Source: an uncultured Campylobacterales bacterium (GTDB lineage Bacteria > Campylobacterota > Campylobacteria > Campylobacterales > QNZT01). Taken from it: a stretch of DNA of 64,000 bases. Position numbers and translations under genes: made by a program. The notes beneath the pieces were generated by a model, which had not been told where the DNA came from, did not search any database, and was given only the letters and a program-made list of their open reading frames with translations. Position 1 is the first letter of the stretch, and the number at the start of each line of letters is the position of its first letter. This document shows positions 9,026 through 16,240 of the stretch, piece after piece. The stretch covers positions 10,918 through 74,917 of the forward strand of contig CAYUEN010000003.1 of the NCBI GenBank assembly GCA_964443745.1, in the 5' to 3' direction.

Positions 9026-11218
9026 GTGATAATGGATACCCCGCAAATGCTTAGCGAGACGTTGCTGAAGCAAATAGAGAATTTCAAATTACAAAATAAA
9101 TTTTTAGATACCATTGAAGATATTGCATTTTTTTGTGCAAATGACGCACGTGAGATCGTCGAATGGAACCGTGCGAGCGAACTTCTCTACGGATATAGTC
9201 GCAGCGAAGCGCTCGGAAAAAAGATAGAAGATTTGATCATCCCTCTCCATGACAGAGAACGGTTTGTCGAAACATTTTCTCCTGATGTATGGATTGAGCG
9301 CGACGAGACCGAGCATCAGAAGAAAGAGGGAACGATACTGCTCGTATATCAGCGGGGGGCGTTTGTCGCGGATGCGGATGGAAAATGGCGATTTTTCAGT
9401 CTCAGTGTCGACATGACAAAACTGCGACAGATCAAAACGCTGCAGTATATGTTGCGGTCGGTCCATATCAAATCCGAAGTTCAAGAATCCAAAATGGTCG
9501 TCGTCTCTTTCGATCGCAATGGTCGTATCAACGGCTTCAACCCTTCTGCCGAAGAGTTGACCGGATATCGCAAAGATGAAGTTTTGGAGCGAAACTTCAT
9601 CACCCTTTTCTTGCCGGAAAGTTATCATGAAAAGATGATGACGACCATTCAAAAAGCATTCAAAGAGCGTAAACCGCAGCAGATGGATGCGTTTCCGATC
9701 ATCTGCAAGGATGGTACCAAGAAAGTTCTCTACTGGGAATACTCCGTCATCAGCGATCGGGACAGACAGGGAAACAGCTTTTTGCTGATCGGTCATGAAC
9801 GCAGCAACGATACGCATCTTCAGGAGCGGTTGGAGTATCTGGCCAATTACGACTCCCTCACCGACCTTCCGAACAAGAATCTCCTCTACGAGAGGCTCGG
9901 CAATGCGATCAACCGTGCGGCCAGATCGAACGAACGGCTCGTGACGATGTTCATCAATCTCGACAATTTCAAATCGATCAACCATACACTCGGTTATGCG
10001 GTAGGGGATGAATTGCTCAAATCGGTCGCAAACAGGCTCTACTCCAGGCTCAGGGATTACGATACGATCGCCCGGTTCGGCGGAGACGAATTCGTGCTCG
10101 TGTTCGAAAAGATCGACGATGAAATCCATGCGGCCTCTTTGGCGAAACGGGTGATGGAGGTTTTCAAAAAACCCTTTTTGATCAAAGGGAACGAACTCTT
10201 TCTTTCGGCGAACATGGGGATCGCCTTTTTCCCTTCCGACGGAAACGATCCCAAAACACTGATCAAAAACGCCAATTTGGCGATGCAACGCTCCAAGGAA
10301 CAGCCCGGTACGTCGTTTCAGATTTTCAAACACGAGATGCATGAAGAGATTACCAAAAGGGTGATTTTGGAGAGAAACCTCAGAAAAGCGATCGAAAACA
10401 GAGAATTTTTCGTCGAATATCAGCCACAGATCGATACCCAAACCAAAAAGATCGTCGGAGCCGAAGCGTTGGTACGGTGGAACCATCCCCAGCTCAGCAG
10501 AATCCCCCCTCTGGATTTCATTCCGATCGCGGAGGATACCGGAATGATTCTGGAGATCGGGCAGATCGTTCTCGAAGAGGCGATCGAGCAGATGCAACGC
10601 TGGCATAAGATGGGTTATGAGGATTTGAAAATTTCCATCAATATCTCCGGCGTGCAACTGCTGCAGAGCAATCTTTTCGAAACCGTCGAGAGGATCTTGA
10701 AGCGTTCCGGATTCGATCCCCGATATCTGGAGTTGGAGTTGACCGAAAGCATTCTGATGGAAAATATCGAACTCGCCTCTTCCCTTCTGCAGCGGTTCAA
10801 GAAGCGAGAGATACACCTCTCTATCGACGATTTCGGTACGGGGTATTCCTCCCTCGCCTATCTGAAAAAATTGCCGATCGATACACTCAAAATCGATCAA
10901 TCCTTTATCAAAAATATTCACAACAGCGAAAACGACAGAGTGATCGTCAATGCGATCATCGCGATGGCACACAGCCTGGGACTCGATGTGATCGCCGAAG
11001 GAGTCGAAAAGAAGAGCCAGTATGCCCACCTCAGACAACAGGGATGCGAAATTCTGCAGGGGTATTTTTTCGGAGAGCCGCTCGAAGCCGAGGCCTTCGA
11101 AGCGTTGATAGAGGAGCGTCGTATTTTGGAGGGGAGCGACTACAAACAGGCCCATTTCGATTTCGATCTGGAAGAGAAACTGAGAAAGTTCAGCGATCCC
11201 AACTATATCACCCGCTGA
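9026..11218 (+). CDS. PAS-PAS-GGDEF-EAL diguanylate cyclase/phosphodiesterase
   Basis: Two PAS motifs (WNRASELLYGY; FNPSAEELTGY), DSLTDLPN, RxxD plus GGDEF, EALVRW, DDFGTGYSSL. Confidence 0.95.
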   Translation: MIMDTPQMLSETLLKQIENFKLQNKFLDTIEDIAFFCANDAREIVEWNRASELLYGYSRSEALGKKIEDLIIPLHDRERFVETFSPDVWIERDETEHQKKEGTILLVYQRGAFVADADGKWRFFSLSVDMTKLRQIKTLQYMLRSVHIKSEVQESKMVVVSFDRNGRINGFNPSAEELTGYRKDEVLERNFITLFLPESYHEKMMTTIQKAFKERKPQQMDAFPIICKDGTKKVLYWEYSVISDRDRQGNSFLLIGHERSNDTHLQERLEYLANYDSLTDLPNKNLLYERLGNAINRAARSNERLVTMFINLDNFKSINHTLGYAVGDELLKSVANRLYSRLRDYDTIARFGGDEFVLVFEKIDDEIHAASLAKRVMEVFKKPFLIKGNELFLSANMGIAFFPSDGNDPKTLIKNANLAMQRSKEQPGTSFQIFKHEMHEEITKRVILERNLRKAIENREFFVEYQPQIDTQTKKIVGAEALVRWNHPQLSRIPPLDFIPIAEDTGMILEIGQIVLEEAIEQMQRWHKMGYEDLKISINISGVQLLQSNLFETVERILKRSGFDPRYLELELTESILMENIELASSLLQRFKKREIHLSIDDFGTGYSSLAYLKKLPIDTLKIDQSFIKNIHNSENDRVIVNAIIAMAHSLGLDVIAEGVEKKSQYAHLRQQGCEILQGYFFGEPLEAEAFEALIEERRILEGSDYKQAHFDFDLEEKLRKFSDPNYITR

Positions 11219-11239: not shown

Positions 11240-11279
11240 TGACGATAATAGTATATGATACTATTGACTATTATCGTCA
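11240..11279. repeat. Perfect 13-bp inverted repeat with nested 8-bp inverted repeat (probable operator)
   Basis: TGACGATAATAGT (11240-52) / ACTATTATCGTCA (11267-79); AATAGTAT (11247-54) / ATACTATT (11258-65). Confidence 0.85.
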
Positions 11280-11292
11280 AAAGTGTTATACT
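11264..11292 (+). promoter_or_regulatory. sigma70 promoter of the recombinase-like/ccoG operon
   Basis: TTGACT-N17-TATACT with TGn extended -10. Confidence 0.75.
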
Positions 11293-11341
11293 TTCGCCAC
11301 GGGATAGATAGGATATCTGCCCGAAATAGGAGAAAACACAG

Positions 11342-12019
11342 GTGGTAGTAGCACTTCTTCGAGGGAAGAACAGAACATGTTCCATCTCCGACCAACAGGC
11401 ATTTTTGATCGAATATGCCTATAAACACGGAATCGCGATCGAAATCACGGAGATCGACGACGATCTGCCGACGCTCGAACTCGAAAAGCGGGAACATCTG
11501 CTCGACCTCATCCATCGACTGAAGGGTGGAGATACCATTTTGATCTACGATCTTTGGGTCTTGAGCAAGAAAGTGGGCGAACTGGCGAAAATTTTCAGTT
11601 GCGCACTCAAAAACAATACAAGTATCCATATCTGTAAGCGCGATATTGTCATCGACCGTCAGATACCGCTGGAGATCATGATGGAGATTCTCTCGACACA
11701 AAGAGAGCAGAACCTCAAAGGTACCAAACGGGTGATAGGGAGGCCGAAAGGGAGTTTTTCCCGGTCGAAATTCGATCCTTATAAGAGTGAAATCGTTAAA
11801 ATGCTCGAAGAGAATCTCTCTGTCAGCGAAATAGCCAAAAAGTTGCAGGTGAGCAGGAGTTCTCTGAAAGACTATATCAATTCACGTTCACTCAAAGAGA
11901 TCGTCGACTCCCAGAAGATGGGATCGGAAGGTGCCGTAGCCCGGGTGAAGTCGCTCTCTTCGAATGTCACGGACGAATGTCCGTTGAAAGTAAACACGAA
12001 AATTTCACACAAAGGATAG
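11342..12019 (+). CDS. Serine recombinase (resolvase)-family protein with C-terminal HTH; catalytic motifs degenerate
   Basis: AGGAG RBS; GDTILIYDL fold motif, GRPKGS arm, HTH LSVSEIAKKLQVSRSSL; RVS replaced by RGK. Confidence 0.8.
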   Translation: MVVALLRGKNRTCSISDQQAFLIEYAYKHGIAIEITEIDDDLPTLELEKREHLLDLIHRLKGGDTILIYDLWVLSKKVGELAKIFSCALKNNTSIHICKRDIVIDRQIPLEIMMEILSTQREQNLKGTKRVIGRPKGSFSRSKFDPYKSEIVKMLEENLSVSEIAKKLQVSRSSLKDYINSRSLKEIVDSQKMGSEGAVARVKSLSSNVTDECPLKVNTKISHKG

Positions 12020-12022
12020 ACT

Positions 12023-13477
12023 ATGGCCGAAGCCGTCGCGCAACCGCGCAAAAGCTCCAAAGAGCGAATGAAAGAGTATCTCAAAGGGTGGATTCCCTAC
12101 CGATACAAGAGATATTACTTTTTTGTTTTCCTCACGATCGTAGCGCTGGTGCTGCCGTTTATCAAGATCAACGGCAACCACTTCTTTCTGCTCAACTTCG
12201 ACCACAAACAGTTGCATCTCTTTTTCGTCAGATTCGATATGCAGGAACTCTATCTGATGCCGTTTCTGCTCATCTTCGGCTTTTTGGGTGTCTTTTTCAT
12301 CACGACGCTCGGAGGGCGTGTCTGGTGCGGCTGGGCCTGTCCGCAGACGATTTTCAGGGTCATCTATAGAGATTTGATCCAGACGAAGCTACTGGGAATC
12401 CGTAAAAACATTCTCAACAAGCAGAAAGAGCCCGACTATTCCAAGCCCGAAAACAGAGTCAAGGGTGCGATCGGTTTCCTGATTTGGGTCGTGCTCTCTT
12501 TTATCGCGGCGGCGGATTTTCTCTGGTATTTCGTGCCGCCGGAGGATTTTTTCCAATATATCAAAAATCCGAGCGAACACGGCGTATTGATGGGGGCGCT
12601 TTTCATCGTCGCCGGTTTTCTGATCTACGACATCGTCAAGCTGAAAGAGGATTTTTGTATCTATGTCTGTCCCTATGCGAGGGTGCAGTCGGTTATGTAC
12701 GACGAAGAGACAATACAGACGATCTACAATACCTACCGCGGCGGCCATATCTACAGTGAAGATCAGGAGGTCAAACTCGTTCACAACCTCAAAGAGTTGC
12801 ATGAACGCGAGCCGGATGCGGAGTGTACGATGTGCGACAGTTGCGTGCGTGTCTGTCCTACACATATCGATATCAAACGCGGTACCCAACTGGAGTGTAT
12901 CAACTGTCTGGAGTGTGCGGATGCGTGTACGAAAGTGATGGCGGCACTCGGCAAGCCTTCCCTGATCACTTGGACCAGCTATTCGGCTGTCAAGGAGGGA
13001 AGAAAACCGAAATTCCTTCGATTCAGGACGATCGCCTACGGTGTCGCGCTGACACTCGCGCTGGTGGGACTCTTCTGGATGGGAAGCAAAAAAGAGTATA
13101 TGCTTCTGAATATCAACAGGACAACCCAGCTCTACAAAATCCATGATGATGGTACCGTGACCAACGCTTACACTTTCCTCTTCCAAAATACGGAGTCGAA
13201 AGACCATACCTACTATTTCGAGGTCGAAGGTCATCCGGAGATCAAGATTGTAAGACCCAAAAAGCCATTCAAACTTAGAGCGCGCCAGAAAGCGAAAAAA
13301 GTCGTAGTCCTCTCTACGGATAAAGTGTTGGTTAAAAATCCCACCAAAGATACGCCGATACCGATTACGATCAAAGCGTATGCCGTCGATGCGAAGGACA
13401 AAGTCGTTGTCAAGAGAAATACGACATTCGTCTTCCCCAGACTCGATCTCTACGAGAAAAAGATCAAAAAACAATAG
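12023..13477 (+). CDS. ccoG: Cytochrome c oxidase accessory polyferredoxin CcoG/FixG
   Basis: GRVWCGWACPQT, FCIYVCPY, CTMCDSCVRVCP, CINCLECADAC. Confidence 0.95.
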   Translation: MAEAVAQPRKSSKERMKEYLKGWIPYRYKRYYFFVFLTIVALVLPFIKINGNHFFLLNFDHKQLHLFFVRFDMQELYLMPFLLIFGFLGVFFITTLGGRVWCGWACPQTIFRVIYRDLIQTKLLGIRKNILNKQKEPDYSKPENRVKGAIGFLIWVVLSFIAAADFLWYFVPPEDFFQYIKNPSEHGVLMGALFIVAGFLIYDIVKLKEDFCIYVCPYARVQSVMYDEETIQTIYNTYRGGHIYSEDQEVKLVHNLKELHEREPDAECTMCDSCVRVCPTHIDIKRGTQLECINCLECADACTKVMAALGKPSLITWTSYSAVKEGRKPKFLRFRTIAYGVALTLALVGLFWMGSKKEYMLLNINRTTQLYKIHDDGTVTNAYTFLFQNTESKDHTYYFEVEGHPEIKIVRPKKPFKLRARQKAKKVVVLSTDKVLVKNPTKDTPIPITIKAYAVDAKDKVVVKRNTTFVFPRLDLYEKKIKKQ

Positions 13478-13484
13478 AGAGCAT

Positions 13485-13519
13485 ATCGCCGTGGAGGTTT
13501 TCTTCCCGGCGATTTCCCT
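13485..13519 (+). terminator. Hairpin/terminator after ccoG
   Basis: ATCGCCG...CGGCGAT stem with inner GGAGG/CTTCC pairing and a pyrimidine tail. Confidence 0.6.
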
Positions 13520-14123: not shown

Positions 14124-15194
14124 TCAGCTCTTTTTCCGCTCCTTTTCAAACCGCTCTTTTGCCTCTTCGTAGATCTTGTCGATATCTAGCGACGAGGGAA
14201 CGAGCTTCTCCCTGATCTTCTTCCACCACCCCGTTGTGGAAATATCTGTGCGTTCTTCGGAGCTGATCGCTTCGCTCTGCTGAGAATGTGTCTGCAACTC
14301 CTCTTCCAATTCTTCGAGTTCGGCGACTTTTTCGGGATCGACACGCCCCGATCCCTTCATCGTATCTTCGATTTCGCGAAACTTGAGTGCGATTTTCTCT
14401 TTCCAGAGTGCCGCCTCCTTTTTCGCTTTTTCTATCTCCGATCGAAGATGTTGATTGGCTTCTTCGACATGAGCGAGGGAAGAGAGACGTTTTTGAAGTG
14501 AGTGGAATTCCCCCGTTAGAATTTCCTTTTCACCCTCTATCTTTTTGAGAATCTCCTCCTTGGACGTGAGGTTGTGAAGTGCCGATGCGAGTTTTTCCCC
14601 CATCTCCGCGAGGTTTTTCTCTTTCGCTTCGATACGCTGCAGAAGTTCTTTCCTTGTTTCGTCGAGTTTGGCGAGATGCTGTTCTTTTTCCGAAAGTTGT
14701 GTCTCGAGTCTCTTCTTTATCTCTTCGAAAGAATGCAAATCCGCTATTTTAGCACGGAGATGCTCCGCGGTCTCTTCGTATTTCTTCTCGAGTTCCAGAA
14801 GTTTTTTCTTCAAAAGACCCTGCTCTTTTGTGTGAGCGGTGAGAGCCTCTTCTTTGTCGAGCAGTGCCTGATCGAGGTCGTTTTTCTCTTTTTCGAGTTG
14901 GACGACCTTTTCGCTCAGTTTTCTGTTTTGTTCCGTCAACTCTTCGATATTGGCGCTAAGAGACTCCTTCTTTATCTCCGTATCGAGTAGGCGTTGTTTT
15001 GTCTCTTCAAAAAGTGTGTTATTGTCCGCAAGAGCCTTATGGGTACGTTTCAACTCTTCATGAAGAGAAGCGATCTGTGGTTCGTATTTCTCTTTTGCAA
15101 AAGCCCTGGCCAATAGATAACCGATAAGAAAGCCAAGAATGAGGGCTGCCAGCAAGCACAGAACCATTTTCGTGATGATGATTTCCATTTTCAT
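14124..15194 (-). CDS. Membrane-anchored long coiled-coil protein
   Basis: N-terminal TM (CLLAALILGFLIGYLL), then about 270 aa of E/K/L heptads; ATGA overlap with the upstream OmpA gene. Confidence 0.85.
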   Translation of the reverse strand: MKMEIIITKMVLCLLAALILGFLIGYLLARAFAKEKYEPQIASLHEELKRTHKALADNNTLFEETKQRLLDTEIKKESLSANIEELTEQNRKLSEKVVQLEKEKNDLDQALLDKEEALTAHTKEQGLLKKKLLELEKKYEETAEHLRAKIADLHSFEEIKKRLETQLSEKEQHLAKLDETRKELLQRIEAKEKNLAEMGEKLASALHNLTSKEEILKKIEGEKEILTGEFHSLQKRLSSLAHVEEANQHLRSEIEKAKKEAALWKEKIALKFREIEDTMKGSGRVDPEKVAELEELEEELQTHSQQSEAISSEERTDISTTGWWKKIREKLVPSSLDIDKIYEEAKERFEKERKKS

Positions 15195-16240
15195 ACTCCT
15201 CTTTTCAGTAAATATATTTCGACACGCCTATTTCTACGGTCGTTTGGATTTTCGGTGATGAATCCGCTCTCTCCGTATCCTCTGGCGACGATTTGCTTTT
15301 TTCTTTTCATATGCGAGAGAAGAAATTTTTTGACCGCTTCGGCTCTTTTTTTGCTCAACATTAGATTGTAGTCGGCATCTCCTCTAGCGTCGGTGTAACC
15401 CGCCACCTCAATCGTGATTCCACTCTCTTTGTCGAGCATACGGGCGATTTTGCGCAATGTTCTTTTACTCTTTTCACTCAATTGGGTGCTGTCGAGCTTG
15501 AAAGTGATCGGCTCTCCCACCAGAATCTCTGCGATTTTTTTCTCCGTTGCGTTCGCTTTTTGGACCTCTTTCTCCTCTTTGGGTACTGTCTCTACGACCT
15601 CCTGCAGAAAACTTCTATCATCCACATGGTATCCTTTCGCTCCAAATCTCTCTTCGATCCGCGAAAGTTTGTCGAAATCGGCTTTTTGATTGAAAACTCC
15701 GTCGACGATCACTTCCTTGTCTCTGATCATCAGCGAAGATTGGGGTATTTTCGCCTCTTCGAAAAGCTTTACGATCTCCAACGCCTCGTCGATCCATTCG
15801 GCACTTTCCCTCCCCTTTTCAGTCGTGATTTGCAAATCGCATGGGTGGGATTCGCAGTAGGAATCTATATGCGAAAGCAGCCTGTTTTTCCTGTCAAGAT
15901 CGGATACTATCGCGGTGACCTGGAGCTTCTCTCCCGAAATATAGGCGAATGATGGAGCTATCGGTTGGGTTGGGGTGGTTTTTGACGGATTCGTATCGTT
16001 TATTTCTGTAGTGGCAGGTTCTGGTGTTTCGTTTGCAGTCGTGGACTCTTCGATTTTTTGAAGATTTTCATTCTGCAGTGTTGCGGGTGTCGTCGCCGCG
16101 AGGTGTTGTGTGGGATTGGCAGACTCTTTTTGGGATGGCATCAAAGCGGCCGCGATCTCCTCTTTTTTGGTGGTGACACAAAGATAGATCAACAACGCGG
16201 AGAGTACAGTCCCAAGCAGCAAAATCACTTTGCTCGACAT
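15191..16240 (-). CDS. Membrane-anchored OmpA_C-like peptidoglycan-binding protein
   Basis: N-terminal TM, T/P-rich linker, GYTDARG...NLMLSKKRAEAV...GYGE...NRRVEI. Confidence 0.92.
   Translation of the reverse strand: MSSKVILLLGTVLSALLIYLCVTTKKEEIAAALMPSQKESANPTQHLAATTPATLQNENLQKIEESTTANETPEPATTEINDTNPSKTTPTQPIAPSFAYISGEKLQVTAIVSDLDRKNRLLSHIDSYCESHPCDLQITTEKGRESAEWIDEALEIVKLFEEAKIPQSSLMIRDKEVIVDGVFNQKADFDKLSRIEERFGAKGYHVDDRSFLQEVVETVPKEEKEVQKANATEKKIAEILVGEPITFKLDSTQLSEKSKRTLRKIARMLDKESGITIEVAGYTDARGDADYNLMLSKKRAEAVKKFLLSHMKRKKQIVARGYGESGFITENPNDRRNRRVEIYLLKRGV

Follow-up and report, generated by a model that had tools for sequence, protein, structure and literature searches.

A 64,000-nucleotide (nt) stretch of DNA from an uncultured Campylobacterales bacterium (contig CAYUEN010000003.1, positions 10,918 to 74,917; hereafter the window) encodes, directly in front of the gene ccoG, a 225-residue homologue of the serine recombinases. 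We propose that this protein is a domesticated small serine recombinase, unable to cut DNA, which regulates its own operon, namely itself and ccoG, as a sequence-specific DNA-binding autorepressor; comparison of sequences makes this reading moderately probable. Its parts are not equally firm. That the protein is a sequence-specific regulator of this operon, with the sign left open, is highly probable, and if it is a regulator, repression is a good deal likelier than activation. The new observation is an inverted repeat at 11240-11279, the right arm of which lies between the -35 and -10 boxes. This repeat overlaps the promoter and travels with the gene, and it supplies the DNA target needed by the regulator idea. 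A preliminary description of this DNA had suggested a recombinase scaffold repurposed as a DNA-binding regulator, and the homologues point the same way through the loss of Ser10 and Arg68, the linkage to ccoG, purifying selection and a putative operator tied to the gene. The elements of the operon are as follows.

11240-11279, no strand: putative operator, a 40-bp palindromic site TGACG-N29-CGTCA with a perfect 13-nt inverted repeat
11264-11292, + strand: predicted sigma70-type promoter, TTGACT-17-TATACT with TG before the -10 box (consensus scan, 10/12 matches)
11328-11333, + strand: ribosome-binding site AGGAGA, 8 nt 5' of the GTG start, read from the sequence
11342-12019, + strand: recombinase homologue gene, 225 aa, GTG start, TAG stop at 12017-12019
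12023-13477, + strand: ccoG, 484 aa, ATG at 12023, TIGR02745 at 482.3 bits against a cut-off of 316.7
13485-13513, + strand: hairpin 3' of ccoG, possible terminator (dG -21.4 kcal/mol, z -3.45)

Fold and catalytic residues of the recombinase homologue

The protein is a serine recombinase by descent. Pfam Resolvase (PF00239) was matched with 27.2 bits against a cut-off of 23.3, over profile positions 15-122 only, so that the nucleophile stretch is left unmatched, and the helix-turn-helix (HTH) profile HTH_7 reached 22.3 bits, slightly below its cut-off of 23.8. The AlphaFold2 model, based on an alignment of 68 family members, has a mean predicted local distance difference test score (pLDDT) of 84.2 and consists of a beta-alpha core (residues 1-104), a helix (110-127), a low-confidence GRPKG linker (133-137), a three-helix HTH (145-181), another helix and a disordered tail. 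In Foldseek, the solved structures that it matched best were the Tn3 and gamma-delta resolvases, at E 8e-8, together with Sin, at E about 1e-7. Superposition by VIA-align gave Z 14.3 and a root-mean-square deviation of 2.4 Å over 115 residues for Sin, and Z 14.1 and 2.5 Å over 115 residues for gamma-delta resolvase; the top matches of both programs were serine recombinases throughout. The nearest intact sequences are small recombinases that best match NF009949 (Mpi master DNA invertase) at 124-195 bits, below the cut-off, and the protein itself scored 45.3 bits against this equivalog, below the cut-off of 272. Alignment of the family with 13 catalytically intact relatives by hhalign had a probability of 99.95 over 188 columns at 26% identity, with no N-terminal gaps, and located two deletions in the family, one of 5 residues before helix E and one of about 11 residues within it. 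The N-terminus MVVALLRGK likewise aligned gap-free with homologues starting M-V/I-I-A.

The DNA-binding arm and the recognition helix are the best-conserved parts of the protein. The residues R172, S174, D177, Y178 and R182 do not vary among 68 diverse members, and the family motifs are invariant across members down to 28% identity. The residues discussed below map to the window at these positions; the counts refer to the 155 family members of at least 190 aa.

11366-11368, + strand: codon of K9, at the position of the Ser10 nucleophile (hhalign)
11555-11569, + strand: W72-V73-L74-S75-K76, in place of resolvase D67-R68-L-G-R71 (hhalign, HMMER)
11738-11752, + strand: GRPKG arm, residues 133-137, with G133, R134 and P135 in 155/155 members
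11774-11884, + strand: HTH domain with helices 145-156, 161-168 and 172-181 in the model and the recognition helix SRSSLKDYINSR (HTH_7, 22.3 bits)

Six residues, Y6, R8, S10, D36, R68 and R71, are crucial in resolvase (Olorunniji and Stark, PMC2794168, in the available part of the paper). By alignment, three of them, S10, R68 and R71, are lost family-wide. The S10 column holds Lys in 96 members, Arg in 21 and Ser in only 2, whereas all 13 intact relatives have Ser. V73 falls on Arg68 and K76 on Arg71 in hhalign, and HMMER against gamma-delta resolvase agrees across the LDRLGR stretch; no member has Arg in the Arg68 column and 6 have it in the Arg71 column. The Arg8 column is R in 132 and K in 19 members, and the Tyr6 column is F in 72, Y in 50 and L in 29, with L in this protein. 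The acidic run E37-I-D39-D40-D41 lies around Asp36, which HMMER and MAFFT put on different residues. The preliminary description had read a resolvase layout with an intact GRP arm and HTH, LLRGK in place of YxRVS and LWVLSK in place of LDRLxR; the profile and structure matches, the invariant arm and the aligned residues K9, V73 and K76 all agree with it, and the survey of homologues for a retained Ser10 returned the two members mentioned. As judged from the family alignment, the loss of the catalytic residues is ancient.

Ser14, which lies five residues past the canonical position at the start of helix A, is conserved in 121/155 members, so that a shifted nucleophile is conceivable from the sequence. 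A shifted active site at Ser14 is nevertheless very unlikely because Arg68 and Arg71 are gone. Four sequences of the otherwise intact Mpi-like clade, P0177 (YLKTSKN), P0182 (YVKGNDD), P0218 (CIKTSDD) and P0220 (YFKTSKD), are also without the serine. Catalysis may thus have been lost more than once among these small recombinases.

Linkage to ccoG and the putative operator

The recombinase homologue and ccoG are separated by 3 nt between stop codon and ATG. The ccoG product matched Fer4_18 (153.9 bits) and FixG_C (78.3 bits) in the domain search, and its score above the curated TIGR02745 cut-off makes it a member of the CcoG/FixG/RdxA family. CcoG acts as a cupric reductase in the assembly of cbb3 oxidase and is required for the full activity of that oxidase (PMC8267372, in the accessible text, citing Marckmann 2019). 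The predicted promoter is the only good sigma70-type promoter in the region. No shuffle out of 200 reached the stability of the hairpin behind ccoG; its U tract is poor, it was not among the matches of the consensus terminator scan, and the genes beyond it are on the opposite strand. Terminal inverted repeats of a mobile element were looked for around the recombinase homologue and none were found, only low-identity chance pairs inside coding regions, and the G+C content is 0.445-0.463 across the gene against 0.463-0.507 in the flanks, which is no anomaly. The layout described earlier, in which a 225-aa reading frame directly before ccoG shares a promoter and a terminator with it and shows no transposon ends, was recovered in all its parts, with the promoter and the terminator as predictions.

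The family occurs among free-living sulfur bacteria and is closely tied to ccoG. A word-indexed search yielded 246 relatives at E<=1e-3, with source names that are all Campylobacterota, and an exhaustive search yielded 26 cluster representatives (50% identity) below 1e-30 and 57 below 1e-10, ordinary recombinases appearing from near 1e-9. In 27 of 41 related genomes the recombinase homologue was matched (E<=1e-3), and at each of the 22 non-self loci with E<1e-30 the next gene downstream, on the same strand, is ccoG. The same holds for 79 of the 80 named-genome loci, which are the best 80 of 419 stretches from named species genomes that encode a relative; the 80th stretch leaves only 81 bp beyond the gene. 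Species representatives feed both locus sets, which therefore overlap. In five weaker loci (L024-L028, 25-35% identity) ccoG is not directly downstream. Carriers include Sulfurospirillum arcachonense DSM 9755, S. cavolei NBRC 109482 and Sulfurospirillum sp. SCADC, together with metagenome-assembled genomes named Arcobacter, Sulfurimonas, Sulfuricurvum, Sulfurovum and Helicobacteraceae. Pairwise identities of the recombinase homologue and of ccoG are correlated with a Pearson r of 0.72 over 78 loci.

An even sample of the phylum had the gene in 49 of 301 genomes (E<=1e-20). Its two largest families had it in 0/124 and 2/90 genomes, against 17/23, 9/11, 8/12, 6/6 and 3/4 in other families. Among the related genomes without a recombinase match, ccoG was likewise unmatched by the query in G026, G034, G036 and G037 and lies at a contig end in G002, while ccoG is present and the recombinase gene absent in G007 and G012, which are of one genus, and in G035 and G040. 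The genome G031 contains two ccoG paralogues (L032/L035), one followed by a gene of the sulfide:quinone reductase (SQR) family, and an unlinked recombinase copy (L024, G031:C32) that ends at a TAG just past the HTH and is therefore without the ECPL tail motif found in the protein of the window.

The gene is under strong purifying selection. The ratio of nonsynonymous to synonymous substitution rates (dN/dS, NG86) is 0.012-0.111, similar to that of ccoG for the same pairs (0.014-0.127; dS<1), and the frame is open in 22/22 loci with E<1e-30 and in 48/49 matches of the phylum sample. These data bear directly on a decaying mobile-element remnant without function, an explanation which could account for the missing catalytic residues and the marginal Pfam scores. 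Such a remnant would not be expected to show dN/dS of 0.01-0.11, open frames, invariant motifs, no element ends and no anomaly of G+C; it is refuted by the selection data and its probability is negligible. Both the adjacency to ccoG across Campylobacterota, at 22/22 and 79/79 assessable loci, and the selective constraint asked about in the preliminary description were thus confirmed.

The putative operator consists of the arms TGACGATAATAGT (11240-11252) and ACTATTATCGTCA (11267-11279), and an 8-nt palindrome lies further in, at 11247-11265. Because the promoter spans 11264-11292, the right arm fills its spacer, occupying spacer positions 4-16. In addition, TTGAC-N7-GTCAA at 11264-11280 forms a 17-bp palindrome. 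We compared 86 distinct upstream regions from 103 loci, with 200 shuffles for the full repeat. A half-site within the -35/-10 spacer was found in 83/86 regions against a shuffle mean of 0.065, and the relaxed full repeat GACG-N28-31-CGYC in 74/86 against a shuffle mean of 0.05. The distance from GACG to CGYC in 75 sites was 33 nt in 57, 34 nt in 11, 32 nt in 4, 44 nt in 2 and 52 nt in 1. A variable spacing between the arms (14-30 nt) was considered and rejected as an artefact of arm length, the core-to-core distance being 33 +/- 1 nt. The orthologous regions share one architecture, a distal TTGACG(A/T)(A/T)AA followed by TTGAC(A/T)-N5-CGTCA-N7-TATAnT, and five loci (L008, L010, L019, L023, L114) carry one or two extra direct copies upstream at 20-bp steps. 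A conserved palindrome overlaps the core promoter of the putative regulator's own gene, which is what an operator of an autoregulatory HTH repressor should do.

Each half-site has specific outer bases, T-G-A-C-G, and an inner A/T-rich run. By analogy, this layout is of the type read by resolvase DNA-binding domains together with their arms (general background and the available text of PMC9943657). The repeat was absent from all 6 assessable upstream regions of ccoG without a recombinase gene, and the unlinked copy L024 keeps TGACG-N29-CGTCA upstream; as read from these loci, the repeat belongs to the recombinase homologue gene and not to ccoG. One clade (Arcobacter, S. arcachonense and relatives) has an AGACG..CGTCT operator, and E163K in HTH helix 2 is present in 9/9 AGACG loci with a detected operator and in no TGACG locus. 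This co-variation is only a hint, because one clade amounts to one evolutionary event.

The same data bear on a non-transcriptional job, such as assisting CcoG as its partner or chaperone, with the repeat being the site of another regulator. The 3-nt gene spacing and the co-inheritance with ccoG would fit a protein partnership, and the cysteines might pass on copper or an Fe-S cluster bound to them. However, the DNA-binding arm and the recognition helix are the most conserved parts, the repeat stays with the unlinked gene and is missing from ccoG promoters without the gene, and the half-sites have the resolvase-type layout of specific outer bases and an inner A/T run. We regard such a role as quite unlikely.

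An active recombinase or invertase using Ser14, for which the repeat would be a tiny invertible promoter, is very improbable. The conservation of Ser14 would suit it, as would the best match of the nearest intact relatives to the Mpi invertase model (below cut-off) and the position of the repeat, which flanks the -35 box. Against this, Arg68 is absent from 155/155 and Arg71 from 149/155 members, helix E is shortened, and the inter-arm segment of 14-29 bp is far too short to synapse. The -35 box stands in the "on" orientation in 83/86 assemblies, and DNA contigs of 4 runs, which drop rare variants, had the same arrangement with no strand-changing joint and two single-base differences. Paired recombination sites or a mobile segment were also looked for and not found: there is one strong site by the gene, the next best sites are in other promoters, and no element ends were seen.

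The position of the arms also bears on the choice between repression and activation. With the same protein and site, the promoter could be activated or architecturally tuned, either by a distal arm near -60 that recruits RNA polymerase or by bending of the DNA. The distal half-site is where class I activators bind, some loci have the extra direct copies 20 bp further upstream, and serine recombinases are strong benders of DNA whose flexible linker lets them accommodate differing site geometries (PMC9943657, in its accessible part). Nevertheless, the near-consensus -35 and -10 boxes with a 17-nt spacer would need no activator, and the best-conserved arm, inside the spacer in 83/86 regions, is in the classical place for a repressor. 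Activation or tuning is therefore unlikely, and autorepression is the reading that we carry forward.

Three further observations concern the surroundings. In the Sulfurospirillum/Arcobacter clade (L063-L091, L105, L109) the 5' untranslated region carries GTGAYAAAAAGGTGACA as a conserved element that surrounds the ribosome-binding site, some 5-25 nt ahead of the start codon; this element is absent from this locus and could be a second control element. Upstream, the operon is adjoined by a PAS-PAS-GGDEF-EAL gene (9026-11218, + strand), and a PAS-GGDEF-EAL neighbour is kept in 15/16 same-family loci with the recombinase gene (the exception is L011) and not in the other families of the order. Downstream, 14124-15194 on the - strand encodes a 356-aa Glu/Lys-rich, highly charged protein with one N-terminal hydrophobic segment and no Pfam match, adjoining an OmpA-domain gene (15191-16240).

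Sites beyond the operon, proposed mechanism and candidate signal

The source genome, a hydrothermal-vent metagenome assembly of 66 contigs and 1.97 Mb, was scanned with a position weight matrix built from 146 half-sites of other genomes, with its own site left out. That site scored 36.8 bits and was the best in the genome, followed by sites of 32.0, 27.3 and then 20.7 bits; block shuffling of the genome, done 20 times, gave maxima of 13.1-25.7. A looser genome scan for TGACG..CGTCA was discarded, its matches being mostly due to chance.

The 32.0-bit site (G000 C4:67637, on another contig) is located 35 nt before an SQR-family gene and has the same promoter architecture (TTGACT/TATAAT). This gene (within C4:67637-68911, L116/L118) encodes a 398-aa Pyr_redox_2 flavoprotein, and its best solved relatives are the sulfide:quinone reductases 3h8i/3h8l and 3hyv. 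The orthologue directly follows ccoG in G027, G028 and G029, in the order recombinase-ccoG-SQR, and in G031; a full site precedes it in G005 and a promoter-proximal half-site in G001, G004 and G014. From these occurrences, the SQR-family gene probably belongs to the regulon, though only in part of the family, a limit set by its position after ccoG in just 1 of 68 named loci with room for it.

The 27.3-bit site, 56 kb from the operator, precedes by about 160 nt a gene for a PhsA/PsrA-like molybdopterin oxidoreductase with a Tat-type signal (G000 C3:78520-81023, L117/L145), about 3.6 kb past the end of the window. A TGACG half-site near -160 was found in 3/12 regions (G000, G004, G022) and in none from genomes without the recombinase. 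As the full site is confined to this genome, the gene was not retained as a regulon member and is a weak lead. The PhsA/PsrA-like orthologues share a TTGAT-N4-ATCA(A/T) box, which we take to be of the FNR/CRP type.

Several points weigh against the autorepressor reading. The full repeat is absent from 12/86 upstream regions, and since TTGAC is required by the -35 box in any case, the promoter and not the operator accounts for some of the conservation. The half-sites are about 34 bp apart and helix E is about 11 residues shorter, an odd geometry for one resolvase-type dimer; resolvase dimer sites span 25-34 bp and are shorter than the 39-40 bp operator. The geometry may be solved by a sharp DNA bend, by two dimers, or by the 17-bp palindrome (11264-11280) acting as the primary dimer site with the distal arm as an auxiliary. 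The related genomes are not independent, so that the counts measure conservation and are too high as a tally of independent events, and the same applies to E163K in its single clade. Ser14 is conserved as described above. For the SQR-family gene, no site was found at 18/27 loci, including those of four genomes of a genus that lost the recombinase, in addition to its rare place behind ccoG; the PhsA-like site scores barely above the shuffles, and its full form occurs in 0/11 orthologous regions. Finally, DNA binding, the transcription start and co-transcription of the operon are predictions.

Taking these points together with the conserved repeat, we propose the following mechanism. In each half-site, the outer TGACG would be contacted by the HTH domain and the A/T-rich inner part by the GRPKG arm, as in resolvase-DNA complexes. 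With subunits on both arms, the arm in the spacer would shut out RNA polymerase, and autorepression would set the level of the protein itself and that of CcoG. Modification of C87 in the core and C213 in the tail, or ligand binding there, would relieve the repression. The same protein probably also controls the SQR-family sulfide:quinone reductase gene on the other contig.

The four cysteines already noted in the protein, C13, C87, C98 and C213, differ greatly in conservation. C98 is present in 102/155 members and C13 in 6/155, and the other two are nearly invariant.

11600-11602, + strand: C87, in helix 78-90 of the core; Cys in 154/155 members and in 0/13 intact relatives
11978-11980, + strand: C213, in the ECPL motif of the disordered C-terminal tail; Cys in 153/155 members, the column being a gap in 13/13 intact relatives

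The tail has a pLDDT below 50 on either side of C213. The conservation of C87 and C213 suggests a thiol sensor, and a cysteine-based signal, such as the redox response raised in the preliminary description, is a tentative possibility that we hold with somewhat less than even conviction. Because of the partner genes, candidate signals would be reactive sulfur species, copper or oxidants, by analogy with CstR and BigR. A more specific scenario is rather doubtful: C87 of the old catalytic core and C213 of the new tail would form a switch, through a di- or polysulfide bridge or a Cu(I) site, that frees the protein from the operator and couples maturation of CcoG/cbb3 to sulfide oxidation by the SQR-family enzyme in sulfur-oxidising Campylobacterota. 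If true, the C87-C213 switch would define a new structural class among the sensors of reactive sulfur or copper, and the protein would illustrate in detail how a site-specific recombinase turns into a dedicated transcription factor.

Significance and comparison with known systems

Resolvases double as repressors while they are still enzymes. A protein in which catalysis was given up entirely, kept in hundreds of species beside a single host gene, would show plainly that the enzyme of a mobile element can become a transcription factor of its host. No ccoG-linked or catalytically dead serine recombinase regulator was found in the literature searched, the cover of which excludes subscription journals, and the accessible part of the review PMC8987985, which deals with invertases and resolvases, mentions no inactivated serine recombinase. 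The same literature described no regulators of the ccoG step in free-living Campylobacterota. The operon would thus offer a testable handle on the control of ccoG in these bacteria, including the sulfur oxidisers of hydrothermal vents and sediments, and its defined putative operator and invariant recognition helix would form a compact protein-DNA pair for studying the reuse of recombinase DNA-binding modules.

The closest known system in fold is the Tn3/gamma-delta resolvase TnpR (1gdt, 2gm5, 5cy1), with the same order of core, helix E, GR-containing linker and C-terminal HTH. By occupying res, TnpR additionally represses tnpA and tnpR. It binds 12-mer half-sites, the spacing and orientation of which set the geometry of the complex (PMC9943657, as far as its text was available). 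In contrast to TnpR, the recombinase homologue is without Ser10, Arg68 and Arg71, its helix E region is about 11 residues shorter with a further 5-residue deletion before it, and it has gained two family-specific cysteines and a C-terminal tail. It is chromosomal and co-inherited with ccoG, with no transposon context, and a single 39-40 bp site on a host promoter takes the place of the three-site res.

The NF009949-like intact recombinases are the nearest relatives in sequence; their arm has the same GRPKGS-x-KSK(F/L)D motif and their recognition helix is similar. Unlike the recombinase homologue, they keep Y-x-R-V-S-T and S-R-L-G-R-S. The thiol-based repressors CstR/CsoR, SqrR and BigR are comparable in the way of working only, their folds being unrelated. 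In CstR, di- to tetrasulfide links of the Cys pair lead to derepression (10.1101/2021.07.25.453692, in the part of the preprint that was available), and BigR is a sulfide-sensing repressor tied to aerobic respiration (PMC5823870, likewise from part of the text). The likeness to these proteins consists in a small putative repressor with a conserved cysteine pair, encoded near genes for sulfide oxidation and aerobic respiration; for the recombinase homologue, it is a likeness of conservation only.

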